From Trueperaceae bacterium (GTDB lineage Bacteria > Deinococcota > Deinococci > Deinococcales > Trueperaceae): a stretch of 64,000 nt of DNA. The position numbers were made by a program, and so were the translations under genes. Numbering within the stretch: position 1 is the stretch's first letter; each line of letters starts with the position of its first letter. The notes beneath the pieces were generated by a model. It was not told where the DNA came from. It ran no database searches and saw nothing but the letters and a program-made list of their open reading frames with translations. The stretch lies in the NCBI GenBank assembly GCA_965213925.1, contig OZ243927.1, positions 416,001-480,000 of the forward strand. Reading direction: 5' to 3'. Shown here one piece after another: positions 4,623-40,386 of the stretch.

Positions 4623-5927
4623 TTGGAGGGTCCTTTGTCAGACGCTGTGGATAACATACTGAATACGAGTGCGAAGCGCTCGGCGCGCAGCAGTGTTTTA
4701 GAGCCGCGCGCGGCGCAAGCCGAGGCGAAACCGCAGACCGCCGATATTTTCAGCAAAGCGTATAACTTTACCCGCGCTGACGAGGCCGCCGAGATGGGGA
4801 TGCACCCCTACTTCAAGGCGATCGCGTCGCAGCGTGGTGGCATGGTCGTCGTGAACGGGCGCGAGATGGTCATCACCGGCTCAAACGACTACCTGGGGCT
4901 AACGCAAGACGCGCGGCTTAAAGAGGCGGCGAAAGAGGCGCTCGGCGACTTCGGCACGAGCTGTACGGGCTCACGCTTTCTCACCGGCACCCTGACGCTG
5001 CACGAGGAGTTAGAGCGCCAGCTCGCCGACTTCTTCAAGGTGGACGCCGCCCTGACTTTTAGCGCCGGCTATTTGGGCTCGCTCGCCGTGCTGAGCGCAG
5101 TGACCGGTCGCCAAGACATCCTCTACTTCGACCGCGAAAACCACGCCTGCTTGTACGACGGGGCGCGGCTCTCCTTCGGCACGCTGCGCAAATACGAGCA
5201 CAACAACTTAGAAGACTTAGAGCGCCTCCTCAAGAAAGACGCCGACAAACCGGGCGGCCGCATGATCGTCACCGACGGCGTCTTCTCGATGAGCGGTCAC
5301 ATCGCCGACTTGCCGGGTCTCGTCAAGCTAGCCAAAAAGTACGGGGCGCGCATCGTCGTGGACGACGCCCACGCGACGGGCGTGCTGGGCGCGAACGGGC
5401 GCGGCACGGCGGAGCACTTCGGCTTGGAAGACGAAGTCGACCTCATCATCGGCACGTTCTCGAAGTCGTTCGCCTCGGTAGGCGGCTTCATGACAGGACC
5501 GCGCGAGGTCGTCAACTGGGTCAAGCACAAGGCGCGCCCCTTTATCTTCACGGCGGCGCTGCCCGCCATGCAGATGGCCGCGGCGCTGCAAGCGCTACAC
5601 ATCATGCGCGACGAGCCGCAGCACCGCGACAAACTCTGGCATAATGTCGAGCGTTTGCGGCGCGGCATGGACACGCTCGGCTTCGACACGATGGGCTCGC
5701 AGACGCCCATCGTGCCCGTTCTCATCGGCGAAGATGACCTGACGATGATGTTCTGGAAAGGGCTGTGGGAAGAGGGCGTCTACACGACGCCCGCACTCCC
5801 GCCCGGCGTCCCCGCCGGGCAGAGCATCATCCGCACCTCGGTCAACGCGAACCACACCGAGGAACAGCTGGACAAGCTTTTAGAGGCGTTCTCAGTTGTT
5901 GGCAAACGCTTAGGCGTCATCGTTTAG
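4623..5927 (+). CDS. PLP-dependent alpha-oxoamine synthase, serine palmitoyltransferase-like
   Basis: GSNDYLGL, GSRFLTG, NHAC, DGVFSM, DDAH and GTFSKS (PLP lysine). Start position uncertain. Confidence 0.8.
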   Translation: MEGPLSDAVDNILNTSAKRSARSSVLEPRAAQAEAKPQTADIFSKAYNFTRADEAAEMGMHPYFKAIASQRGGMVVVNGREMVITGSNDYLGLTQDARLKEAAKEALGDFGTSCTGSRFLTGTLTLHEELERQLADFFKVDAALTFSAGYLGSLAVLSAVTGRQDILYFDRENHACLYDGARLSFGTLRKYEHNNLEDLERLLKKDADKPGGRMIVTDGVFSMSGHIADLPGLVKLAKKYGARIVVDDAHATGVLGANGRGTAEHFGLEDEVDLIIGTFSKSFASVGGFMTGPREVVNWVKHKARPFIFTAALPAMQMAAALQALHIMRDEPQHRDKLWHNVERLRRGMDTLGFDTMGSQTPIVPVLIGEDDLTMMFWKGLWEEGVYTTPALPPGVPAGQSIIRTSVNANHTEEQLDKLLEAFSVVGKRLGVIV

Positions 5928-27102: not shown

Positions 27103-27438
27103 ATGAATAGACCTATCGACAATCCTCCCAACTTAAACCACTTTCGGGGCACTCGGCGCAGCATCCTGACGCTCGTCTGCGGCGTCGCAATCGGCTTCGC
27201 GGCGAGTTCCGACACCCCTCTTCTCTTAGGCGTCGCCTGGCTCTTCGCCGCGTTCGCCTATGCTGAAAAAAGCTACCTCGATGAGCAGTACTCGAGGGCT
27301 ATCATGCTGTGGACGTTCGGCGTGGCTGGCTTAGCAGGGACGCTCCTTGTGCAGCAGCAATATCTGGCGGGAGCCGTACTTGGCGCGTTAGCAGCGGGCT
27401 ACGCGGTGCAGGCGTGGTGGGCTAGGGCACGGGCTTAG
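27103..27438 (+). CDS. Small membrane protein, hypothetical
   Basis: About 111 aa with four hydrophobic segments; GC-rich coding-like codon usage. Start uncertain. Confidence 0.55.
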   Translation: MNRPIDNPPNLNHFRGTRRSILTLVCGVAIGFAASSDTPLLLGVAWLFAAFAYAEKSYLDEQYSRAIMLWTFGVAGLAGTLLVQQQYLAGAVLGALAAGYAVQAWWARARA

Positions 27439-27485
27439 CTCGAGCTTCACAATACGACGCTCAATCTTAATGAAGATTGTGGTGC

Positions 27486-27514
27486 TTGACACCTTATGTG
27501 AGGTTTGCTACACT
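27486..27514 (+). promoter_or_regulatory. Sigma70 promoter of the Y RNA/tRNA/rsr/rtcB locus
   Basis: TTGACA (27486-27491), 17-bp spacer, extended TGn plus TACACT (27509-27514); the first Y-like RNA starts at 27523. Confidence 0.8.
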
Positions 27515-27522
27515 TCTAATTC

Positions 27523-27590
27523 GCGGACCGAAGAGACTTCGTTACCTGACTTTCCCTCAGACCTAACCCGAAGTCTCACCACTCGTCCGC
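27523..27590 (+). ncRNA. Y RNA-like element 0 (minimal)
   Basis: GCGGAC-C-GA...CTC-GTCCGC bulged Ro-binding stem, inner stem AGACTTCG/CGAAGTCT, TTACC motif, small hairpin CTGA-CTTTCCC-TCAG. Confidence 0.75.
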
Positions 27591-27640
27591 TAATTTCCAA
27601 GAAAGGGAGACACTCACCGCTTTGTGAGGTCGTGGACGCT

Positions 27641-27772
27641 ATGAATAAACATTTTATACAACCCGAACACGGCTCCATCCTGAGCGCCGAGCCCACCTGG
27701 TTTTTCCAGCGTGCCACCTGGTTTTTCCAGCGTGCCACCTGGTTTTTCCAGCGTGATAGTCGGCGAGCGTAA
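27641..27772 (+). CDS. Candidate leader peptide (43 aa, TWFFQR x3)
   Basis: ATG at 27641 after GAGGT; the ORF spans the 21-bp triple repeat. Coding status unproven. Confidence 0.35.
   Translation: MNKHFIQPEHGSILSAEPTWFFQRATWFFQRATWFFQRDSRRA
27693..27755 (+). repeat. Perfect tandem repeat, 3 x 21 bp
   Basis: CCACCTGGTTTTTCCAGCGTG at 27693, 27714 and 27735. Confidence 0.95.
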
Positions 27773-27853
27773 GGATATTAAGGTGAGTTGGACCCCTCGA
27801 ATATTTTTAACCCCCAAAAACTGAATAGTACTCACCTTAATTTGGAGCTATAG

Positions 27854-27986
27854 ACGGGCCGAAGACGTTTCGTTATCTGGATCATCGTGTTGCGGGTTCG
27901 AATCCCGTCTAGCGTCAGCTAGTAGCTCAAACGGTTAGAGCATATGATGGAGCCTAGCTCCTACCGAAATGTCGTCTCTTGCCCGT
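27854..27986 (+). ncRNA. Y RNA-like element 1 (YrlA-type, T arm-acceptor hairpin-D arm)
   Basis: ACGGGC-C-GAAG...CTT-GCCCGT; GTTATC; T arm GCGGG-TTCGAAT-CCCGT; CTAGC-GTCA-GCTAG; D arm TAGCTCAAACGGTTAGAGC. Confidence 0.85.
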
Positions 27987-28054
27987 TTTCAAAGAAGAGT
28001 TGTCCGCAAGGGCTAACTCACAGGTCTTTATACCCCTCTGAGGCTATTCGCTCT

Positions 28055-28144
28055 GATGGACTGACGCAGTTTGGTTATCTGGATTCACAAGTTCGACTCT
28101 TGACCTAGCGCAAGCTAGCATCCAAACTACGTTCCTTGTCCATC
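28055..28144 (+). ncRNA. Y RNA-like element 2 (T arm + acceptor hairpin, no D arm)
   Basis: GATGGAC-T-GA...CTT-GTCCATC; GTTATC; CAAG-TTCGACT-CTTG; CTAGC-GCAA-GCTAG. Confidence 0.75.
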
Positions 28145-28156
28145 TCTACTAGACCT

Positions 28157-28232
28157 GGTGCCATCGTCTAGCGGTCTAGGACTCGAGCCTTTCACGTTCG
28201 CAACAGGGGTTCAAATCCCCTTGGCATCACCA
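28157..28232 (+). tRNA. tRNA-Glu(TTC)
   Basis: Full cloverleaf: GGTGCCA/TGGCATC, D arm GTCT/GGAC, CGAGC-CTTTCAC-GTTCG, AGGGG-TTCAAAT-CCCCT, encoded ACCA. Confidence 0.88.
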
Positions 28233-28243
28233 ACCTAATTTAC

Positions 28244-28414
28244 GATGTGGGCCGAAGCGTGTCCGTTATCGACTTCTAATCGGCAGGTCGCGGGTTCGAC
28301 TCCCGCCCAGCACCCCCAACATGGTGCTGGTAGCTCAGTGGCAGAGCAGCTCGAGCACCACTTGGTTTGGTAGAACCCCAGTGCTCGTTCGGACATTCAC
28401 CCCTTGCCTACATC
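28244..28414 (+). ncRNA. Y RNA-like element 3 containing permuted tRNA with TCT (Arg) anticodon loop
   Basis: GATGTGGGC-C-GAAG...CTT-GCCTACATC; GTTATC; TCGA-CTTCTAA-TCGG; T arm; CCAGCACC/GGTGCTGG; D arm TAGCTCAGTGGCAGAGC. Confidence 0.85.
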
Positions 28415-28419
28415 TTTTC

Positions 28420-28493
28420 AGCGCCATCGTCTAACGGCAAGATTCCTGGTTCTTACCCAGGGGATGAAGGTTCAAATCCTTCTGGCGCTACCA
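28420..28493 (+). tRNA. tRNA with CTT anticodon (nominal Lys) in a Glu-like body
   Basis: AGCGCCA/TGGCGCT, GTCT/AGAT, CCTGG-TTCTTAC-CCAGG, GAAGG-TTCAAAT-CCTTC, ACCA. Confidence 0.82.
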
Positions 28494-28494
28494 C

Positions 28495-28622
28495 AACTAA
28501 GCCGAAGGGCGTTCGTTATCGGTCAGAGCCCCTGAAAAGGGAGGACGCTGGTTCAACTCCAGCCTAGCCGCAAGGCTCAGTAGCTCAGGGAAACAACGCG
28601 AATGTCCACCCCTTGCCTAGTT
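28495..28622 (+). ncRNA. Y RNA-like element 4 containing permuted tRNA-Phe(GAA)-like module
   Basis: AACTAAGC-C-GAAG...CTT-GCCTAGTT; GTTATC; GGTCAGAGC, CCC-CTGAAAA-GGG, GCTGG-TTCAACT-CCAGC, then GGCTCAGTAGCTCAG. Confidence 0.82.
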
Positions 28623-28635
28623 TTATCTCTATCAT

Positions 28636-28783
28636 AGGCGAGCCGATTGGGTTCCGTTATCAGCCTGTCACGCTGGCGGTGCAGGTTCGATTCCTGCCTA
28701 GCCCTCGGGTCAGTCGTCTAAACGGTTAGGACACCAAGTCGGAAGCGATTCCGACATACCGAAGCCCGCCCACTTGCTCGCTT
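28636..28783 (+). ncRNA. Y RNA-like element 5 containing permuted tRNA with GTC (Asp) anticodon loop
   Basis: AGGCGAGC-C-GA...CTT-GCTCGCTT; GTTATC; TCAGC-CTGTCAC-GCTGG; GCAGG-TTCGATT-CCTGC; D arm TCGTCTAAACGGTTAGGAC. Confidence 0.83.
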
Positions 28784-28874
28784 TATCTTACGCGGATAGG
28801 TCGCTGAGTTCTTCTCAAATCCTTTCACCTGTCTGCTTTATCGACGCAAGCTCCAGCTCTTCTGAGCTTGTATC

Positions 28875-28953
28875 ACGCAGATATCATCCCTGAACGTGCG
28901 TGCTAGAGATTGCTTCTTCGGCTGAGCGCGTTTGTGACCAGATGCTACCTGCT
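28875..28953 (-). repeat. Repeat family B copy abutting the rsr RBS
   Basis: Reverse complement aligns with 23752-23830 and about 4076-4141. Confidence 0.7.
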
Positions 28954-28970
28954 TGAAGGAGGTGCTCGAA

Positions 28971-30563
28971 ATGCAAAAGTTCCACAAGCTCTTCTCACCC
29001 ACTAAAACGGCGCAAAACCGCCCGCTGGATAAATCGCAAATCAAGAACAGTGCGGGCGGATACGTCTGGGCGCTGGACCCGTGGAAGAGACTCGAGCGCT
29101 TCCTCATCTTGGGGACGGAGGGCGGCACGTTTTACGTCCGCGAAGCGCCCCTTACAGTGGAGAACGCCGAAAACGTCGTTAAGCTCCTCACAGAAGACGG
29201 CGTCCGTGTCGTCAACCGAGTTGCGGAGGTCAGCATGCAAGGTCGCGCTCACAAGAATGACCCAGCGCTCTTCGTCCTGGCGCTCGCATTCACGGTAGGT
29301 GACGTGGACACAAAGCGTGCAGCGGAAGCGGCGCTGCCTAAGGTCGCGCGTACTGGCACGCACCTCTTCACCTTCATGACCTACGTGAGCGAGATGCGCG
29401 GCTGGGGTCGTGTGCTGCGCCGTGCGGTAGCGGGTTGGTACGCGAGCAAAGATGTATCGGCGCTCGCTTATGGAGTCACTAAGTACGCCCAGCGCGGCGG
29501 CTGGACGCACCGCGACGCCCTACGTTTGGCGCACCCTAAGACGAATGACGCCGAGCGCGACGCGCTGTACCGTTACGTTACGGGGCATAGCGACAAGTTG
29601 AAGGAGGTGAGCGGCGAATGGGTTGACTACTTAAAGGCAGTCGAAGCGGTAAAGGTCGAAACGAACGTGCAAGCGGTCGTGGACGCCATCACGCGCTATA
29701 ACCTGCCGAGAGAGGTCATCCCTACCGAAATGCTTCGCAACAGTCAAGTCTGGGCGGCACTCCTAGCGCGTATGCCTATGACCGCGACGATTCGCAACCT
29801 CGCGACGATGACGCGCGTCGGCTTGCTGACACCTATGAGTGAAGCGTCAGAGGTCATCGCGGAACGCATCAAGAACGAAAAGGCGCTCCGCAAGGCTCGC
29901 GTCCACCCCATCGCCATCCTCGCCGCGCTGATGACCTACAGCGCAGGGCGCGGCGCAAGAGGTAAGGGTGTGTGGGAACCCGTGCAAGAGGTCGTGAACG
30001 CACTCGACACTGCGTTTTACCGCGCGTTCGAGAACGTCGTGCCGACGAACAAGCGCATCCTCATGGGGCTGGACGTATCCGGCTCGATGACCTGGGGTGA
30101 GGTGGGCGGCGTCCCTGGACTCACGCCCCGCGTCGCAAGTGCGGCACTCGCACTCGTCACGGCTTGGGCGGAGCCCAAGCACACGTTCATGGCGTTCTCG
30201 CACGAACTCGTGCCGGTCAAGATTTCGCCGCGTCAACGGCTGGACGACGTGGTGAAGCGCCTGGACGCTCTACCCTTCGGCGGGACGGACACCTCGCTGC
30301 CGATGCGTTACGCGGCGCAAAAGGGACTCGAGGTTGACGCCTTCGTCGTCCTGACCGACAACGAGACTTGGTACGGCAAGCAGCACCCCGCCGAAGCGTT
30401 GCGCGAGTACCGCCGCAAGACGGGTATCCCCGCCAAGCTCATCGTGGTCGGGATGCTCGGCAACCGCTTCACGATTGCGGACCCAAACGACGCTGGCATG
30501 TTAGATGTGGTCGGGTTCAGCACGGATACGCCGACGGTTATCGCGGATTTCATTCGCGAGTGA
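28971..30563 (+). CDS. rsr: Ro60/TROVE domain RNA-binding protein
   Basis: RBS GAAGGAGG before ATG 28971; NSAGGY, RFLILGTEGGTFY, RTGTHLF, KYAQRGGWTHRD, HPIAIL and vWA MIDAS DVSGSM, TDNE. Confidence 0.95.
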   Translation: MQKFHKLFSPTKTAQNRPLDKSQIKNSAGGYVWALDPWKRLERFLILGTEGGTFYVREAPLTVENAENVVKLLTEDGVRVVNRVAEVSMQGRAHKNDPALFVLALAFTVGDVDTKRAAEAALPKVARTGTHLFTFMTYVSEMRGWGRVLRRAVAGWYASKDVSALAYGVTKYAQRGGWTHRDALRLAHPKTNDAERDALYRYVTGHSDKLKEVSGEWVDYLKAVEAVKVETNVQAVVDAITRYNLPREVIPTEMLRNSQVWAALLARMPMTATIRNLATMTRVGLLTPMSEASEVIAERIKNEKALRKARVHPIAILAALMTYSAGRGARGKGVWEPVQEVVNALDTAFYRAFENVVPTNKRILMGLDVSGSMTWGEVGGVPGLTPRVASAALALVTAWAEPKHTFMAFSHELVPVKISPRQRLDDVVKRLDALPFGGTDTSLPMRYAAQKGLEVDAFVVLTDNETWYGKQHPAEALREYRRKTGIPAKLIVVGMLGNRFTIADPNDAGMLDVVGFSTDTPTVIADFIRE

Positions 30564-30620: not shown

Positions 30621-31838
30621 ATGGAATTGACGAAAAACATTTTCGGTCAACACGATGAAAAGACCTTGAAGCAGCTCGAGGACGTAGCGACGAGGGCTGA
30701 TAGAGTCGCCCTCATGTCAGACGGACACTTGGGCTACGTGATGCCCATCGGCGGCGTTGCTGCTTATGACAATAAAGTATCTGTCGCAGGCGTCGGCTTC
30801 GATATTGCGTGCGGGAACGCAGCCATCAAGACGAACTTGACCTTGGAACAACTCGAGCCCAACCTCACCACCCTCGCTGACGAAATCGCCGAGATCATCT
30901 CGTTTGGCGTTGGACGCAAAAACACCTCGGACGACGCGCCTGTGAATGACCCGCTCTTTGAGGACGCCGCTTGGGAAGTTGTCCCCACCAAAAAGGGCGT
31001 GCGCCAGCGTCTTTTAGACAAAGCGCGTAACCAGCTTGGCACGGTGGGCTCGGGCAATCACTACGTGGACGTCTTCGCGGACGAGAAGGGCGTGATTTGG
31101 GTCGGGGTGCATTTTGGCTCTCGCGGTTTCGGTCACACCGTCGCCTCCACCTTCATGGCGCTCCATCAGGGCGGCAAGTGGGGCGATAAGGGTAAGGAGA
31201 GCGAGGCACTTCTCAGCTTAGACGACGAGTTGGGCAAGGACTACTGGGCACTCATGACGCTCGCGGGGCGCTACGCCTACGTCGGGCGCGAGTGGGTCGC
31301 GCGTAAAGTCGTGGAGATTTTTGGGGGGACAGAGCAGGAACTCGTCCACAACCACCACAACTACGCCTGGAAAGAGGTGCATGACGGGCGTGAACTCGTC
31401 GTCGTGCGTAAAGGGGCGACGCCCGCTTTCCCTAGTCAAAAAGGCTTCGTCGGCGGCAGCATGGGCGACAACGCCGTCATTTTACAAGGTCGTGCGGATG
31501 CGGACGACGCAACCAAAGAACAACAAGCGTCAGCGCTCTACTCCACCGTTCACGGCGCAGGTCGCGTGATGAGCCGCACGCAGGCGGCGGGTAAGTGGGA
31601 CTATAAGCGCAAAGTCCGCAAGACTGAGGGGCTAATTTCAACAGAGATGATGCACGATTGGCTCGCCGAGAAAGGGGTCATCTTGCGCGGCGGCGGCTTG
31701 GACGAAGCGCCGCAGGCGTACCGCAGGTTGCCGGGCGTGTTGGCGTCGCAAGGCGCAACGGTTGAGGTCTTGCATACGCTCACGCCGCTTATCGTGGTGA
31801 TGGCAGGGGCGAACGAGTTTGATCCGTATAAGGATTGA
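30621..31838 (+). CDS. rtcB: RtcB family RNA ligase
   Basis: DGHLGY, GFDIACG, GTVGSGNHY, HFGSRG, HNHHN, RKGATPA, HGAGR and DEAPQAYR. Confidence 0.95.
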   Translation: MELTKNIFGQHDEKTLKQLEDVATRADRVALMSDGHLGYVMPIGGVAAYDNKVSVAGVGFDIACGNAAIKTNLTLEQLEPNLTTLADEIAEIISFGVGRKNTSDDAPVNDPLFEDAAWEVVPTKKGVRQRLLDKARNQLGTVGSGNHYVDVFADEKGVIWVGVHFGSRGFGHTVASTFMALHQGGKWGDKGKESEALLSLDDELGKDYWALMTLAGRYAYVGREWVARKVVEIFGGTEQELVHNHHNYAWKEVHDGRELVVVRKGATPAFPSQKGFVGGSMGDNAVILQGRADADDATKEQQASALYSTVHGAGRVMSRTQAAGKWDYKRKVRKTEGLISTEMMHDWLAEKGVILRGGGLDEAPQAYRRLPGVLASQGATVEVLHTLTPLIVVMAGANEFDPYKD

Positions 31839-35031: not shown

Positions 35032-36363
35032 ATGCAGTGGACGAGCGAGCGAGTTCTAGCCCTCGCGCCTGACAGCAGTTCGGTCAAGGCGGTTAAAAAG
35101 CTCTCAACGCTAAGCAAGTGGTCGAATCTAGGCGACAACGCGCGAGCGCTCTGGGGCGAATGCAAGGGCAGCGGCAGCAAGCCCTACTTAACCCAGATCG
35201 ACTTAGAAGGCGGTCCTTCCTTCAAGTGCTCGTGTCCGAGCCGTAAATTCCCCTGCAAACACGGTCTCGCGCTCTTTTTGCTGCGCGTTGACCAAGCGGG
35301 CGCGTTCGGCAGCGGCGAACCGCCCGACTGGGTCAGTGAGTGGTTGGAGGAGCGCAGCAAACGCGACGAGACCCAAGCCAAACGCGCCGAAACCAAGGCG
35401 AAAAAAGACGCCGACCCCGAAGCCACCGCGAAGCGCGCGGAAAAACGCGAAGCCAACATTCAGGCGGGCGTTCGCGACTTGGAGCGGTGGCTGTGCGACC
35501 TCGTGCGCCGGGGTCTCGCCAGCGTTCAGAGGGAACCTTACGCCTTTTGGGACGAGATGGCGAGCCGCATGGTGGACGCGCAAGCGCCGGGGTTAGCCAA
35601 CCGCTTGCGCGTGCTCGGTGGTCTGGCGGTGCGGGGCGAAGCGCAGGTGGACGTGCTACTCGAGCACCTCGGGCTTTTACACCTCTTGCTCGAGGGCTAC
35701 AGCCGCATAGACACGTTAGCGCAGGCGCTGCAAGCGGATATCAGAACGCAACTCGGTTTGACACAGGACCAGAACGCGCTGCTGCAACAACCAGGCATCA
35801 GAGACCGCTGGCAAGTCTTAGGTCAGGCGAGCGAGAACGAGAACAACCTTACGGCGCGGCGTTCGTGGCTGCGCGGCGAGCGGAGCGGGCGCACGGTGTT
35901 CGTCCTCGACTTTGCCTACGGCGGGGCGTTTACCGACGAGTCTTTGCTCGTGAACACCGCCTTCGAGGGCGAACTCGTTCTCTTCGAGGGTCACGCGCCG
36001 CAGCGGGCGCTCGTCAAAACATGGGAGGAGAGCGAAGTGCTGAGCAGCTTCAGCGCCGAAATGGACATTTTGAACGGCACGGCGCACTACGCGCAGGCGC
36101 TCGCCGCCCAGCCGTGGCTGACGCGCTATCCGCTCGCCCTCGAGGAGGTCCAACTCATACCGACATGTGGTGAGAAGAGCGAGACCTGGCTCCTCACGGA
36201 CGCCTCGCATCAGCTTCCCGTCCACCCCGACTTCGCTCAGGGCTGGACGCTCCCCGCGGTGAGCGGCGGGCAGCCGCTGACGCTCTTCGGCGAGTGGGAC
36301 GGACGCGCCTTTTTACCCCTCGCGGCGAGCTTGACGGACAAGACGGTGAGACTGCATGGTTAG
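35032..36363 (+). CDS. SWIM zinc finger protein (YehQ-like)
   Basis: GSGSKPY, CSCPSRKFPCKH and RMVDAQAPG. Confidence 0.85.
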   Translation: MQWTSERVLALAPDSSSVKAVKKLSTLSKWSNLGDNARALWGECKGSGSKPYLTQIDLEGGPSFKCSCPSRKFPCKHGLALFLLRVDQAGAFGSGEPPDWVSEWLEERSKRDETQAKRAETKAKKDADPEATAKRAEKREANIQAGVRDLERWLCDLVRRGLASVQREPYAFWDEMASRMVDAQAPGLANRLRVLGGLAVRGEAQVDVLLEHLGLLHLLLEGYSRIDTLAQALQADIRTQLGLTQDQNALLQQPGIRDRWQVLGQASENENNLTARRSWLRGERSGRTVFVLDFAYGGAFTDESLLVNTAFEGELVLFEGHAPQRALVKTWEESEVLSSFSAEMDILNGTAHYAQALAAQPWLTRYPLALEEVQLIPTCGEKSETWLLTDASHQLPVHPDFAQGWTLPAVSGGQPLTLFGEWDGRAFLPLAASLTDKTVRLHG

Positions 36364-36414
36364 GGCGGTTGCGGTGGCGCGGCGTCGCAACGCCAGTTTG
36401 ACGGAGGAACGCCC

Positions 36415-37866
36415 GTGAGTTGGGACGCGCTCCAAAAGGGTGCGCTCTTAGGAACCGAGCGGCAAGCATACGAAGGCACGCTGCTCGCTGCAAGCCCTGA
36501 AGCGCAACTCCTGAGCGACGCGGCGGCGCTTACGTTGCAGCGTAAGGCGGGGCGTGTGCCCGCCGCGCGCAACCCCGACGACGCTCCTGCGCCCTGCCCA
36601 GAAGACGCGCAGCCCGCCGCCACTTACACCGCGACCTTACGAACGCTGCTCGAGACCCGCACCCACAGCCCCCTGCTTGCGCAGTGGTTGGACTGCGCCC
36701 AACGTGCCGACTTGCGCGCGCCCGAGCAGAGCCTGCCCGATTTGCTCGAGTACGGCAGACACGCCGCCGAGCTGCGCCCCGCTATCCGCGCCGTGCTAGG
36801 CGAAAGAGGTCGCTGGCTCGCGCGTTTGAATCGGGCGTGGGGCTGGGCGCTCAGACCTGAGGGGTGGATAGTCAATGGCGAAGTCATCCCCGAGGTGCGC
36901 CGCCGCGAGCCAGCACGCGCCCGCTCGCTCACCGAACAGGTATGGCAAGAGATGAGCGCACAGACGCGCACCGAGGTGGTCGATTGCCTCAGCGTCAACC
37001 TCAGCCTGGCGGACGAACCCTTTTTGGAACGCGCGTTGACTGACCGCAGCAAGAGCGTCCGTAGGAGCGCCTCAAGGCTCCTCACCCTTTTGCCCGGTTC
37101 CGCACTGAGCCGCCGCATGGCTAGGCGTGCCGATGCGCTTTTGAGCCTCGTGCCACAAGGCTCTAAAAAGGTCGTGACCTTAAACCTCCTCGCCCAAGCC
37201 GACGACGCCCTCTTGCCTGGCGGTATCGAACCGGAGAAAACGCGCGACGAGGGCGAGCGGGCGAGCCTGACGCGGCAGGTGCTAGAGGGCGTGCCGCTCG
37301 AGCATCTCACAGAACGCTTCGGTGAGCAGCCAAGCGTCCTCATCGACGCTGCTCTCGAAAATAAGGAGTGGGGCGCACTTATCTTGGCAGCGTGGACCGT
37401 GCGCACCGTGCGGGCGCAAAACACAGCGTGGGCACGAGCCTTCTTCGAGAAGCGCTCGAAGCTCATAAATATTACCTATACGGCGCTGCCCGACCTCTTT
37501 CGCCTGAGCATCCCCGCAGAGGAGCGCGACGCCTACCTCTTGGCTGAGGTCCGCCGCCACAAGCCGCCCTTGTATAAACATGGTGACTTAGCAGCGCTTC
37601 TCCACGCTCACGAACGCGCGTGGTCGCCCGCGCTGACGGCGGCGGTGCTGGCGGGTTTACCCGCCGACCTGAGCAGCGCCAAACACTACCGCCCCAACCT
37701 GCAAAGTTTCTACACCGCGTGCGCGCACTCCATGCACCCGGCGACGCTACAAGAGGTTCTCCAGACGCTTACCTTGCCCGAAAGTGCAAACTGGATAGAT
37801 ACCCTACTCGCCTATCTGCGCGACGTGGCCAACCTGCGCCGCGCCATCCTCGAGGAGTTCAGGTAA
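36415..37866 (+). CDS. DUF5691-like helical protein
   Basis: ALLGTER, LGERGRWLARLN..W and DEPFLERALTDRSKSVR; this position in SWIM-MoxR operons is typical. Confidence 0.65.
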   Translation: MSWDALQKGALLGTERQAYEGTLLAASPEAQLLSDAAALTLQRKAGRVPAARNPDDAPAPCPEDAQPAATYTATLRTLLETRTHSPLLAQWLDCAQRADLRAPEQSLPDLLEYGRHAAELRPAIRAVLGERGRWLARLNRAWGWALRPEGWIVNGEVIPEVRRREPARARSLTEQVWQEMSAQTRTEVVDCLSVNLSLADEPFLERALTDRSKSVRRSASRLLTLLPGSALSRRMARRADALLSLVPQGSKKVVTLNLLAQADDALLPGGIEPEKTRDEGERASLTRQVLEGVPLEHLTERFGEQPSVLIDAALENKEWGALILAAWTVRTVRAQNTAWARAFFEKRSKLINITYTALPDLFRLSIPAEERDAYLLAEVRRHKPPLYKHGDLAALLHAHERAWSPALTAAVLAGLPADLSSAKHYRPNLQSFYTACAHSMHPATLQEVLQTLTLPESANWIDTLLAYLRDVANLRRAILEEFR

Positions 37867-37873
37867 TCGACCC

Positions 37874-38914
37874 ATGACAGACCTAACCGCACTCAAACGA
37901 GAAGCCCGCAACAAGAAGACCCGCCCCGAACGCCTGCGCCAACTCGCGGCGCTGGACGAGGCGCTTTCACGCGCCGTCGCCAAGAGCAAAAACACGCCCC
38001 CCGAAGTGCTCGCCGACCTCGCCCGCAGCGGCGATATGCCCACGCGCCGAAGAGTGGCGGCGAACCCAACTACTCCGGTTGACCTCTTGGAACAACTTGC
38101 GAACGATAACCAGTGGACGGTGCTCAAAGCCGTTGCGCTCAATCCGAACGCGACTCCTCAACTTTTAGACGACCTATCTCAGCATCCGCGTTGGAGCGTT
38201 CGGGAGACGGTCGCACGGCTTCGCCCGCTGCCACAAACCACAATCGAGCGGCTCGCTAATGACAGTCACGCAAGGGTGCGGGCACAACTCGCCTTGTCAA
38301 CCTTACCGCCAGACCTCTTGGAGAAGTTACAGAGCGATTCGGACGCCTTGGTCCGCCGCCATGTCGCGCTCAACCATCAGCTTTCTGCCGCCGCCTTGAC
38401 CGAGCTTTCGAACGATTCAGCAGAAATCGTCAGGGCTGCTGTGGCGATAAATAATGCGACACCCCGAGAAATCGTCAGAAAACTGTCGCATGACTCTGCG
38501 GCGACCGTAAGAGAGCTTTCAATCATAAGCGGTCGAGGCTTTTTCAACATTGAGGATTTCGAAAGGCTTGCGCTAGACGAAGCTGCGAATGTTCGTTTTC
38601 AGACTCTACAAGACCACGATGCGGCTCAAGCCCTACTCATCAAGCTTGTTGGTGACGAAGACTGGAGGATTAGAGTGCAAGTTGCCTATAGAGTGGCTGA
38701 CGCTACCGCACTCGAGACGTTATCCCATGACCCCGTGGACAGGGTGCGCCAAGAGGTCGCAAGCAACCATTTCACGTCTCAGAAAACGCTATTGCGGCTA
38801 GCCTCTGACACCAGTGCAAAAGTCAGGGAAGCGATTACTTACAACACAGATGCAGCGGAGGAGGTTTTGCTAAAACTTGCTCTTGACCCTAATGAGAAGG
38901 TCGCGGGGAGCTAG
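37874..38914 (+). CDS. HEAT/leucine-rich-variant repeat protein
   Basis: Many ~24-aa repeats of the form LA.D....VR..VA.NP.TP..LL. Confidence 0.75.
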   Translation: MTDLTALKREARNKKTRPERLRQLAALDEALSRAVAKSKNTPPEVLADLARSGDMPTRRRVAANPTTPVDLLEQLANDNQWTVLKAVALNPNATPQLLDDLSQHPRWSVRETVARLRPLPQTTIERLANDSHARVRAQLALSTLPPDLLEKLQSDSDALVRRHVALNHQLSAAALTELSNDSAEIVRAAVAINNATPREIVRKLSHDSAATVRELSIISGRGFFNIEDFERLALDEAANVRFQTLQDHDAAQALLIKLVGDEDWRIRVQVAYRVADATALETLSHDPVDRVRQEVASNHFTSQKTLLRLASDTSAKVREAITYNTDAAEEVLLKLALDPNEKVAGS

Positions 38915-38925
38915 CGCTTCGTAGG

Positions 38926-39273
38926 ATGTCACTCGCTATGAATCCCTATGACGAGGCGGAGCGAGAAGAGGCGGGATACAGCTACGCGCCGCTCGAGGCG
39001 CTGCGTACTCTTTTTGAAGACGATGACGAGAACGTCCGCTACTGGGCGAAAGAAACACTCGTATTTCATCACCCCAATTGCCCCTTAGAACTTCTCTTAA
39101 AGTTTTGCAGAGATGAGAACGTTTTTACTTCCTTCCGCGCTAAAGCGCGTCTTTGCGAGCAAACAGATACGCCTACCCACATGTTAGAGCAGCTCGCTAC
39201 CGATGAAGAGCAAGTCATTGCTGAGCGAGCCCAGGCACGCCTTCACGCGCTATCCCAAGAAAGTGAGACCTGA
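38926..39273 (+). CDS. Short HEAT-like repeat protein (possibly split from the upstream gene)
   Basis: LFEDDDENVR, HPNCPLELL and LEQLATDEE repeats. Confidence 0.55.
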   Translation: MSLAMNPYDEAEREEAGYSYAPLEALRTLFEDDDENVRYWAKETLVFHHPNCPLELLLKFCRDENVFTSFRAKARLCEQTDTPTHMLEQLATDEEQVIAERAQARLHALSQESET

Positions 39274-39276
39274 GTC

Positions 39277-40386
39277 ATGTCCGAGAACAATGTGCGCCCC
39301 GCCGCATCTCAAACCATCCTCCGCCAACACGCCGAACAAGCGTACGCCCACGAACTCGCCGAACTCGCCCAAGCGGATAAACGCCCGCGCCCTCCCAACT
39401 GGCACCTCTCGCCCTGGGCGGTGCGAACGTATCTGTTAGGCGGCACGTTGGAGAACGGCTTCGAGGTCTCCGCTAAGTATATCGGTGGGGCTCGAGTGGT
39501 CGAAATCGCCGTGGCGACGCTCGCCACCGACCGCGCCTTGCTGCTTATCGGCGTCCCTGGCACCGCGAAGACATGGGTGTCCGAGCATTTAGCCGCCGCG
39601 ATTTCGGGCGATTCGACGCTGCTGATTCAAGGCACGGCAGGGCTCAGCGAGGAGGCGGTGCGCTACGGCTGGAACTACGCGCAGCTTCTCGCGAAGGGAC
39701 CGAGTTTGGAGGCGGTGGTGGAGAGCCCCCTCATGCGGGCGATGAAAAGGGGCAAGGTCGCCCGCGTCGAGGAGCTGACGCGCATCCCGAGTGAGGTGCA
39801 AGACACGCTCATCACGGTTTTGTCCGAGAAAACGCTGCCTATCCCTGAACTGAATAGCGAGGTGCAAGCGGAGAGGGGCTTTAACGTCATCGCCACCGCG
39901 AACGACCGCGACAAGGGGGTGAACGACCTCTCGAGCGCCCTCAAGCGCCGCTTCAACACCGTCGTGCTGCCCCTACCTGCCAGCGCCGACGAAGAGGTCC
40001 GCATCGTGCAGCAGCGCGTGGCGAGCTTGGGCCGGGCGCTCGAGCTGCCCGCCGAGCCGCCCGTATTAGAGGAAATCCGCCGCGTCGTGACGGTCTTCCG
40101 CGAACTCAGAAGCGGCGTGACCGAGGACGGCAAGACCAAGCTCAAGTCGCCCAGCAGCGTGCTCTCCACCGCCGAAGCTATCGCCGTGGTCAACCAGGGG
40201 ATGTCTTTAGCGGGTCACTTCGGCGACGGCAGCCTCGGGGCGAGCGACTTAGCGGGCGGGCTGCTCGGCGCGGTCGTCAAAGACCGCGTGCAGGACAGCC
40301 CGATCTGGCGCGAGTATTTGGAGACCGTCGTCAAGGAGCGCGAGGGCTGGAGCGACCTCTACCGCGCCTGCCGCGACATCAGCTAG
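39277..40386 (+). CDS. MoxR-type AAA+ ATPase (YehL-like)
   Basis: GVPGTAKTWVSEHL, RYGWNY, EELTR and TANDRDKGVNDLSSALKRRF. Confidence 0.9.
   Translation: MSENNVRPAASQTILRQHAEQAYAHELAELAQADKRPRPPNWHLSPWAVRTYLLGGTLENGFEVSAKYIGGARVVEIAVATLATDRALLLIGVPGTAKTWVSEHLAAAISGDSTLLIQGTAGLSEEAVRYGWNYAQLLAKGPSLEAVVESPLMRAMKRGKVARVEELTRIPSEVQDTLITVLSEKTLPIPELNSEVQAERGFNVIATANDRDKGVNDLSSALKRRFNTVVLPLPASADEEVRIVQQRVASLGRALELPAEPPVLEEIRRVVTVFRELRSGVTEDGKTKLKSPSSVLSTAEAIAVVNQGMSLAGHFGDGSLGASDLAGGLLGAVVKDRVQDSPIWREYLETVVKEREGWSDLYRACRDIS

Follow-up and report, generated by a model that had tools for sequence, protein, structure and literature searches.

Y RNAs upstream of rsr in a Trueperaceae bacterium carry an anticodon-like hairpin and may mimic a whole tRNA

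Introduction

The closest described relatives of the RNAs reported here are bacterial Y RNAs of the YrlA class. The YrlA of Salmonella Typhimurium (crystal structure 6CU1; preprint of Wang et al. 2018) combines a Ro-binding stem with tRNA-like T and D arms and a closed acceptor arm; in the preprint's account of the fold, the RNA has no anticodon loop and the YUAY motif lies in a kinked anticodon stem. The same preprint discusses permuted tRNAs and a dimeric-tRNA origin of YrlA. Here, we describe an array of such RNAs in a stretch of 64 000 nucleotides from a Trueperaceae bacterium (GenBank assembly GCA_965213925.1, contig OZ243927.1, positions 416 001–480 000 of the forward strand), called the window below. 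The array (window positions 27523–28781) consists of six Y-RNA-like elements, numbered 1, 2, 2b, 3, 4 and 5, and of two tRNAs, and is located upstream of the genes rsr (Ro60) and rtcB; all these features are on the (+) strand. Elements 3 and 5 have an extra hairpin compared with the Salmonella RNA, and this hairpin is the main subject of the present work.

A stem-loop following a conserved YUAY was shown by Chen et al. (2014, RNA 20:1715), who call it V (variable arm) and let the YUAY begin the V loop. Their seed alignment includes the YrlA of Mycobacterium smegmatis, with CCA-CTTCTAA-TGG; this RNA is bound by Rsr, cut by RNase P and extended by CA. Our account departs from theirs in that their passages on YrlA present V without an anticodon-like description. 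Full-text literature searches, whose coverage did not include Burroughs and Aravind (2016) and Sim and Wolin (2018), found no description of the V stem-loop as anticodon-like. An earlier note on this locus had assumed that YrlA RNAs mimic the T, acceptor and D arms, with the Ro stem in place of the anticodon arm; given the V stem-loop of Chen et al. (2014), this premise is incomplete.

A Y RNA from the same phylum, Yrn1 of Deinococcus radiodurans, has a potential anticodon arm with a 5-bp stem (Chen et al. 2014). As described there, Yrn1 differs from the elements of the window in its 6-nt loop, in the lack of a V arm and of a full D arm, and in the reversed order of T and D.

Results

Element 3 (28247–28411) is a YrlA-type Y RNA with the composition of a complete tRNA look-alike. 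It scores 39.0 bits with the Rfam YrlA model over 28283–28350, and its folding z score is −2.40. The Ro-binding strands (5′ 28247–28265, 3′ 28389–28411) enclose, in this order, a YUAY motif (28266–28269), the hairpin CGA-CTTCTAA-TCG (28270–28282, loop 28273–28279), the bases GC of tRNA positions 42–43 (28283–28284), which pair with 28349–28350, a variable loop AGGTC (28285–28289), a T arm (28290–28306), a closed acceptor of 8 bp (28307–28330, with 28307–28314 paired to 28323–28330) whose loop contains CCA (28316–28318), a D arm (28333–28347) preceded by TA, and an extra 3′ hairpin (approx. 28351–28388). The earlier note had placed the triplet TCT at 28275–28277 in a 7-nt loop CTTCTAA and had given the order T arm, acceptor helix with a CCA-containing loop, D arm. 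Both statements are correct, and here as in element 5 the hairpin lies at exactly the distance from the variable loop and T arm that a tRNA would have. The stem TCGA/TCGG that it proposed holds for the inner three pairs, present in 20 of 20 distinct relatives, and is not robust for the outer ones (T:G/A 15/20, A:C 0/20).

Element 5 (28638–28781) is a second YrlA-type Y RNA with an anticodon-like hairpin (YrlA model, 23.9 bits over 28680–28732). The hairpin AGC-CTGTCAC-GCT occupies 28662–28674, with the loop at 28665–28671; GTC at 28667–28669 was rightly recognized in the earlier note, and the AGC/GCT closure can be extended to TCAGC/GCTGG. The GG of positions 42–43 (28675–28676) can pair with CC at 28734–28735. 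A T arm (28681–28697) follows after a 4-nt variable loop, and then come a weak closed acceptor (28698–28713) with one mismatch in its helix, a D arm (28716–28732) and a 3′ hairpin (28738–28756). The D arm resembles those of the neighbouring array tRNAs, so that exchange with adjacent tRNA genes is possible. When a reading in native order is forced, the Rfam tRNA model gives 25.3 bits over 28636–28705 (gathering threshold 29).

The assignment to the YrlA class follows from several features. The motif GNCGAAN0–1G is present as GCCGAAG in element 3 (28251–28257) and element 4 (28501–28507), and as the variant GCCGATTG in element 5 (28641–28648). YUAY occurs as TTAT at 27873–27876, 28266–28269, 28516–28519 and 28657–28660. 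In elements 2, 3 and 5, the T arm lies 5′ of the D arm with a closed acceptor-like stem-loop between them. The elements are on the same strand as rsr and within 4 kb of it, ending 190–1450 nt before its start at 28971. Element 3 is of the same type as the validated M. smegmatis RNA: as published, the M. smegmatis YrlA (RF02553) also lies upstream of rsr on the same strand and has GNCGAAG, YUAY and a 3-bp/7-nt hairpin. Its loop CTTCTAA is identical to that of element 3, and both RNAs have a T arm, a closed acceptor (7 bp in M. smegmatis) and a D arm. Unlike M. smegmatis, the window combines, in a single array, several paralogues that differ in triplet and topology.

The position of the hairpin in the tRNA frame can be read from its surroundings. 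The two bases after the hairpin (42–43) pair with the two bases after the D arm (27–28). Among seven full-length sequences, both pairs of this 2-bp helix show changes in both strands, and pairing is kept in 14 of 14 cells. Both positions pair in 12 of the 16 elements in which a D arm lies at most 65 nt from the T arm, and in four of the 12 in which the next D arm, probably that of another gene, is at least 79 nt away. Inspection by eye of the published seed alignment gives AA/TT in M. smegmatis, GG/CC in Streptosporangium, GC/GT in Gordonia and AG/CT in phage ET08. An anticodon arm with a 5-bp stem, a 7-nt loop, U33 and a purine at 37 is thus found as a composite of 2 bp and the 3-bp hairpin; it occupies tRNA positions 27–43 and is followed by a 5-nt variable loop. 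The 3′ strand of the hairpin is contiguous with the 2-bp helix, and the Y stem joins through YUAY on one side and through a linker or the extra hairpin on the other, which makes coaxial stacking plausible; from this arrangement, we infer that the helices may stack coaxially into a mimic of the anticodon arm.

This placement bears on the published interpretation, in which the stem-loop corresponds to the variable arm of a tRNA, the helix of the 5′ and 3′ strands corresponds to the anticodon stem, and the anticodon-like features are coincidental. Chen et al. (2014) name the stem-loop V and let YUAY start its loop, and the 5′/3′ helix does take the position of the anticodon stem in element 2 and in Salmonella. 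However, a spacer of seven bases (2 + 5, typically NN-AGGTC) separates the hairpin from the T stem, and since its NN are the partners of the bases after the D arm, the hairpin falls at 29–41 and not at 45–47. Variable arms of class II tRNAs have loops of 3–5 nt followed by one or two bases. A hairpin at 45–48, with a short loop and one or two bases before the T stem, is not what the elements have: their loop is of 7 nt, with the T33/R37 signature, and six or seven bases follow. A hairpin of the same kind also occurs directly after a D-stem strand and position 26 in a related locus (L004, see below). We therefore consider the variable-arm interpretation very unlikely.

An alignment of 27 Rsr proteins was used to search one genome per species for relatives, and 80 loci (L numbers below) were obtained. 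Four of them (L001, L002, L003 and L005) are metagenome-assembled genomes (MAGs) of Trueperaceae with orthologous arrays and Rsr proteins 70–72% identical to that of the window. The orthologues of element 3 in all four keep the hairpin stem and the 7-nt loop; L001 shares the loop CTTCTAA with the window, that of L002 is CTTTTAT, and L003 and L005 both have CTTTTAC. The L005 orthologue of element 5 keeps AGC/GCT, with the loop CTTTCCC and a reduced D region. In the alignment of 21 sequences (20 distinct rows) with the CGA/TCG stem, the third pair of the hairpin shows a compensatory change in two of 20.

A covariance model was built from 21 sequences, from YUAY to the T arm, and gave 326 matches with E ≤ 1 in 885 629 bases. 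Among the best 150 of these 326 matches, 76 lie off ARAGORN tRNAs and 72 of the latter have a Y-RNA 5′ motif. A 3-bp/7-nt hairpin ending six or seven bases before the T arm is present in 29 of these 72 Y-type elements, compared with 935 of 14 400 shuffled segments. Chance hairpins in the shuffled segments have T33 in 25% and a purine at 37 in 47% of cases.

A stricter scan yielded 40 elements with the hairpin, from Deinococcota, Gemmatimonadota, Chloroflexota, Armatimonadota, cyanobacteria-like MAGs and a Gordonia phage; its filter missed known cases in L004, L012, L060, L065 and L081. Of these 40 loops, 33 have C, five T and two A at position 32, 37 have T33, 38 have a purine at position 37 and 39 have A or C at position 38, whereas positions 34–36 have entropies of 1.74–1.87 bits. 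Eleven stem types are represented: CGA/TCG (20), CCA/TGG (7), CCG/CGG (4), CCT/AGG (2) and seven singletons. The hairpin also occurs in phages with a Ro gene, Mycobacterium phage HyRo (CUC-AUUGAAA-GAG) and Gordonia phage Cashline. Many elements of Gemmatimonadota carry tetraloop stubs in place of the 7-nt loop, like element 4 below.

Two further loops of this collection deserve mention. In Longimicrobium, L079 (5232–5272) and L080 (5395–5435) have near-identical flanks, with the loops CTCCAAC and CTTGGGA differing at five of seven positions; their triplets, CCA and TGG, are reverse complements of each other. In L001, a Y element at 4975–5120 resembles class II tRNAs: its hairpin, TCGA-CTGAAAA-TCGA, has a GAA loop, its T arm is preceded by a long insertion, and its D arm is of the GGCGGAGCGGTTAAACGC kind.

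High variability of the triplet could also be that of a relic. According to this explanation, the upstream tRNA of a dimeric-tRNA ancestor has left its anticodon arm behind as the hairpin, which is retained only as a stable U-turn that aids folding; the loop is not read and its triplet drifts neutrally. Triplet entropy is indeed high amid conserved surroundings, tetraloop stubs replace the loop in some lineages (element 4, many Gemmatimonadota elements), arrays are interleaved with real tRNAs, and the elements show no affinity to tRNAs with the matching anticodon (see below). The difference between L079 and L080 can be counted here as well, their spacers having also diverged, and the dimeric-tRNA model of origin is cited in the 2018 preprint. 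Other observations speak against a relic. Identical 7-mers recur across stems and phyla: CTGTCAC is found on CGA/TCG, AGC/GCT, TGC/GCA and CGT/ACG, and CTTCTAA in the window, L001, M. smegmatis and Streptosporangium. The triplets GAT and GTC are both kept between L054 and L059, although the Y stem of the GAT element differs. Furthermore, G37 goes with the triplets TGG and TAG, which is the pattern of m1G37 tRNAs. A relic appears possible on this evidence, if on the unlikely side.

Element 4 (28497–28620) has a different topology, in which the Ro-binding stem enters the tRNA-like fold via the D loop. The 3′ strand of its D stem, GAGC (28526–28529), is followed by a stub CCCT-GAAA-AGGG (28530–28541), a variable loop (28542–28546), a T arm (28547–28563) and a GCAA-capped acceptor (28564–28580), and the 5′ strand of the D stem, GCTC, lies at 28583–28586. 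The minimum free energy (MFE) fold has exactly these helices. The D stem is thus formed across the Y stem, which is a variant of the T–acceptor–D order of YrlA. The D-loop break was recognized in the earlier note, and the GCTC/GAGC pairing across the Y stem is conserved in five of five sequences. In contrast, the GAA (Phe) anticodon assigned to this element has to be given up: a GAAA tetraloop on a 4-bp stub is the better parse and the MFE fold, and the orthologues in L001, L002, L003 and L005 have GCAA or GTAA tetraloops on stems of 2–3 bp.

A related arrangement was found in L004, a Deinococcota MAG. Its element at 886–962 has D-loop entry together with an un-nicked 5-bp arm, TCTGC-CTGTCAC-GCAGA, which comes directly after the D-stem strand GAAT and position 26. 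Further D-loop-entry elements lie at 1073–1230 and 1281–1420 of the same locus; one of them has a 5-bp stem and a 6-nt loop, CTTTAC. This element is reminiscent of Yrn1 as described by Chen et al. (2014), and homology of Yrn1 with the L004 elements or element 4 is a lead suggested by that description only. The different breakpoints proposed in the earlier note are thus real: the Ro stem continues the anticodon stem in element 2, whereas for elements 3 and 5 its point of entry is a nick between positions 28 and 29, and for element 4 it is the D loop. The topology of element 4 and L004 indicates that a Ro-binding helix can be grafted onto the tRNA fold at more than one site, which bears on the origin of Y RNAs from tRNAs.

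The note had further proposed that the elements are independent captures of different tRNAs. This is not supported: 20 of the 40 hairpin elements have the same CGA/TCG stem whatever the triplet, the stem, AGGTC and the T arm remain constant while the triplet changes, and the loop CTTCTAA is also that of the published M. smegmatis and Streptosporangium YrlA. Un-permuted elements are 0.65–0.77 identical to many tRNAs, with no preference for those of matching anticodon. In this comparison, made with 228 ARAGORN tRNAs of class I size from the loci (a reference set without the housekeeping tRNAs of this organism), the nearest tRNAs are Thr and Asn for element 3 (0.77) and, in a tie, Thr, Asp and Pro for element 5 (0.71–0.72), and the L004 element ties among several (0.65–0.66). 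No affinity of un-permuted elements to tRNAs of matching anticodon was seen among these 228.

Un-permutation at the natural join leads ARAGORN to call element 3 tRNA-Arg(tct) and element 5 tRNA-Asp(gtc), whereas elements 4 and 2 are not called; un-permutation was a check that the note had asked for. No call was obtained with 500 whole-sequence shuffles of elements 3 and 5. In a grid of 1717 joins per element, element 3 gave 256 calls of Arg(tct) among 563 calls of any kind, element 5 gave 165 of Asp(gtc) among 235, and element 4 gave none; even for element 2, which lacks an anticodon hairpin, there were 115 calls, with scattered anticodons. When the anticodon arm alone was shuffled, 454 of 500 (element 3) and 182 of 500 (element 5) sequences were still called tRNA. 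The calls therefore report mostly on the T, D and acceptor arms and little on the anticodon arm, and the grid was rejected as a test of that arm.

Functional tRNAs could, in principle, be made from such sequences. Circularly permuted tRNA genes of red algae and some archaea resemble the elements in having a loop-closed acceptor and a 3′ half that is encoded first; they are matured by a splicing endonuclease and a ligase, whereas the elements have a Ro60-binding helix at the break and show no sign of maturation to a tRNA. If elements 3 and 5 were genes of this kind, they would be processed to functional tRNA-Arg and tRNA-Asp by excision, ligation and opening of the acceptor loop. The ARAGORN calls agree with this, as do the 7–8-bp acceptor helix of element 3, with CCA in its loop in L001, L003 and L005, and the cleavage by RNase P and gain of CA reported for M. 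smegmatis YrlA. Yet the break lies inside the anticodon stem, beside a long Ro-binding helix with the Rsr motif; in the window the CCA, as part of CCCA, lies out of register, and L002 has none; the triplet TCT becomes TTT in orthologues; a mismatch interrupts the acceptor of element 5, and no D arm is present in the L005 orthologue of this element; and bacteria are not known to have a splicing endonuclease, as the 2018 preprint states. We regard conversion to functional tRNAs as extremely improbable. A native-order cloverleaf with free acceptor ends and at least 29 bits was likewise not found among the Y elements, whose acceptor helices are closed loops.

ARAGORN nevertheless calls seven related Y-type elements tRNA in native order (L062 3903–3969, L079 5209–5282, L054 5099–5171, L012 3639–3715, L055 5530–5597, L061 5155–5220 and L060 5249–5319). 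The labels are Ser, Trp, Ile, Cys, Gln, Lys and 'Stop(tta)', and other elements have TCA loops. These calls are likely false annotations of tRNA, suppressor or selenocysteine (SeC) tRNA genes. That tRNA finders call some Y elements tRNAs, including apparent suppressor and SeC tRNAs, constitutes an annotation trap.

Two further tests concerned the loop itself. A first count of loop flanks shared with ordinary tRNAs of the same anticodon (35/52, with 12 of 2000 permutations as high) was discarded because it was contaminated by real tRNAs starting with a Y-like motif; the corrected count is given in the Discussion. A loop–loop contact within the RNA, in which the loop would pair with the segment 3′ to the D arm, is not supported: the mean longest Watson–Crick match is 3.86 versus 3.65 (205 of 1000 as high), and with G–U pairs it is 5.07 versus 4.57 (13 of 1000 as high), a difference driven by T-rich loops of related sequences.

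The other elements of the array are simpler. Element 1 (27523–27590) is a small Y RNA with the GNCGAAG motif and without a T arm; its tip consists of TTACC followed by a hairpin CTGA-CTTTCCC-TCAG, and its MFE of −20.5 kcal mol−1 (z = −3.30) was equalled by none of 200 shuffles. Element 2 (27853–27987) is a canonical YrlA-like RNA, matched by the Rfam YrlA model over its full length (27865–27975, 38.9 bits). Its T arm, closed acceptor and D arm are all recovered as hairpins in the MFE fold (z = −2.73), and it has no anticodon-like hairpin; the equivalent of the anticodon stem runs on into the Ro-binding stem, in the manner of Salmonella YrlA. Element 2b (28055–28144; z = −3.65) is YrlB-like, with only a T-arm-like hairpin and a GCAA-capped acceptor-like hairpin, and has orthologues in L001 and L003.

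The two tRNAs, both found by ARAGORN and both with an encoded CCA, are tRNA-Glu(TTC) (28157–28232; Rfam tRNA model, 56.4 bits) and tRNA-Lys(CTT) (28420–28493; 61.2 bits). At gathering thresholds, these two (28157–28229 and 28420–28490) are the only Rfam matches in the array; the YrlA scores given above come from a rerun of the window with relaxed thresholds. Interleaved tRNAs were compared between the window (two), L001 (5561), L002 (1410), L003 (5118), L004 (1593) and L005 (4832, 5175, 5249 and 5583). Most share one common body (NNNNCCATCGTCTA...GGTTCRAATCC...) with anticodons for Glu, Lys, Asp or Gln. Directly before the element-3 Y RNA, the window has a Glu(TTC) tRNA, and L003 and L005 have an Asp(GTC) tRNA with a near-identical body. 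A tRNA-like RNA, b7a-tRNA, has been predicted next to rtcB and occasionally rsr (Burroughs and Aravind 2016, as cited in the 2018 preprint), and the Glu and Lys tRNAs inside the array could be of this kind. Large tRNA arrays are common beside Ro60 genes in Chloroflexota and cyanobacteria-like MAGs: at least five ARAGORN tRNA calls are present in the fetched rsr flanks of 16 of 81 sources (e.g. L009, L010, L013, L014, L017 and L019; also L038, L043, L045, L047, L051, L077 and L078), with up to 29 calls in L007.

Downstream of the array, rsr (28971–30563) encodes a Ro60 orthologue with the TROVE domain (PF05731, 2.2e−44) and the Ro60 vWA domain (PF25045, 4.4e−63), the closest named relatives of which are from Trueperaceae and Deinococcota MAGs; rtcB (30621–31838) encodes an RNA ligase (PF01139, 1e−67). 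A promoter-like site, TTGACA-17 nt-TACACT with TG, lies at 27486–27514, just 5′ of the first Y element. Such sites are weak evidence by themselves (one found, 0.8 expected), and a TTGACA-containing stretch recurs 5′ of the first element in L001, L002, L003 and L005. The site is a candidate start of a polycistronic array transcript. No terminator-like site was found in window positions 27300–29000; together with the one promoter-like site before the array, this is consistent with a single precursor, as reported for M. smegmatis (Chen et al. 2014), and from this layout the array would be co-transcribed with rsr–rtcB.

Some additional features of the region were recorded. The interval from the last Y RNA to rsr contains a stretch (ACGCGGATA-G-CGCT-like; approx. 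28790–28806) that is conserved in L002 (approx. 1613–1628), L003 (approx. 5893–5908) and L005 (approx. 5897–5912); it could serve as an operator or processing site, or another small RNA could start there. An open reading frame (ORF) of 43 codons (MNKHFIQPEHGS..., 27641–27772), located between elements 1 and 2, holds a perfect 3 × 21-nt tandem repeat (27693–27755) coding for TWFFQRA three times; in L001, L003 and L005, an ATG follows a GGAGG-like stretch at a similar position. Farther downstream of rsr–rtcB (35032–40386) are genes for a SWIM zinc-finger protein, a DUF5691 protein, an LRV/HEAT-repeat protein and a MoxR-like AAA ATPase.

A further role, as decoys or sensors for anticodon nucleases, was considered in the earlier note. 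In a regenerable panel of this kind, anticodon nucleases would cut the Y loop, and RtcB would reseal the 2′,3′-cyclic phosphate and 5′-OH ends. The adjacency of rtcB, the different triplets of paralogues within one array (TCT and GTC in the window, GAT and GTC in L054 and L059) and the recurrence of exact tRNA-like 7-mers on unrelated stems are in line with this. So are the interleaved Trueperaceae tRNAs for Glu, Lys, Asp and Gln, which are classical targets of anticodon nucleases. In addition, Hughes et al. (2020) suggest that YrlA's tRNA-like domain may competitively inhibit an anticodon nuclease. The distribution of the hairpin does not follow that of rtcB: among 60 loci with enough flank, 17 have both hairpin and rtcB, 17 the hairpin only, 10 rtcB only and 16 neither, so that the hairpin is as common without rtcB in the fetched flanks as with it. 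The triplets TTA, TCA, ACT and ATT of the 40-element set are unusual as tRNA anticodons and argue against a decoy role, and the Salmonella YrlA was not a substrate of the nuclease studied by Hughes et al. (2020), although that RNA has no loop of this kind. A regenerable panel is, in our view, quite unlikely.

Discussion

We propose that elements 3 and 5 are YrlA-class Y RNAs that mimic a whole tRNA, including an anticodon-like arm shown to tRNA-docking proteins as bait or competitor, and give this proposal an even chance of being right. It builds on the hairpin, its spacing, its loop signature, the covarying 2-bp helix and the conservation across phyla, as observed in the sequences. Also in its favour are the location of rsr and rtcB directly downstream, the un-nicked arm of L004, the ARAGORN calls for un-permuted elements 3 and 5 and for the seven related elements, the loop shared with the Rsr-bound M. 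smegmatis YrlA, and the independent suggestion of Hughes et al. (2020) on inhibition of an anticodon nuclease. What is new here is that V is read as the distal anticodon arm, that a conserved U-turn frame holds a hypervariable triplet, and that the Ro-binding stem can enter at the D loop.

In the mechanism that we envisage, the effector module would be a look-alike of the whole tRNA, beyond the T, acceptor and D arms. The V stem-loop and the 2 bp (27–28 with 42–43) would form a 5-bp stem with a 7-nt loop, and this loop has the signature of an anticodon loop: a pyrimidine at 32, U33, three free bases and a purine at 37. The Ro-binding stem would leave the fold through the nick between positions 28 and 29. 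Element 4 represents the other topology, with D-loop entry and an anticodon arm reduced to a GNRA-capped stub. An Rsr-bound Y RNA could then offer the full mimic, anticodon loop included, to proteins that dock on tRNAs, of which anticodon-directed nucleases and tRNA-modifying or repair enzymes appear the likeliest partners. As a bait or competitor, the mimic might vary its triplet without harm to the fold.

A number of observations weigh against this proposal. In the 21-sequence alignment, the two innermost pairs of the hairpin are invariant. The MFE fold of element 3 contains, instead of the hairpin, a competing helix of GAC with GTC of the variable loop, and this helix fits most of the sequences (86% of cells pair); in L073, it loses a pair where the hairpin keeps one. 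The MFE fold of element 5 misses the tRNA-like fold, and neither its z score (−0.64) nor that of element 4 (−0.75) is significant. The scores of the window's elements with Rfam RF02553 (39.0, 38.9 and 23.9 bits) do not reach the gathering score of 69 bits, the model having no positions for the anticodon-like hairpin; in this respect, elements of 24–39 bits differ from the YrlA of Rfam. The tRNA calls of ARAGORN survive shuffling of the anticodon arm, as described above. The loop flanks agree only weakly with those of ordinary tRNAs of the same anticodon (21 of 35, permuted mean 16.0, 150 of 5000 permutations as high), and the triplet may be unconstrained. No association between the hairpin and adjacent rtcB was seen among the 60 loci. 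The Salmonella YrlA, without the hairpin, is not cut by the SOS-induced anticodon nuclease (Hughes et al. 2020).

A more elaborate version of the proposal would make the hairpin a diversifiable anticodon bait. The V stem-loop would mimic the target of a nuclease and have its triplets swapped, and together with spare Lys, Glu, Gln and Asp tRNAs and sometimes RtcB it would form a response island for anticodon damage, in which the Y RNAs would sense damage, soak it up or present it for repair. We consider this version unlikely.

If V is an anticodon-arm look-alike, many YrlA RNAs would be complete tRNA mimics, and the missing partner of their tRNA-like half should be sought among the proteins that read anticodon loops. 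Mycobacterium smegmatis would be relevant in this respect, as its validated YrlA shares the loop of element 3.

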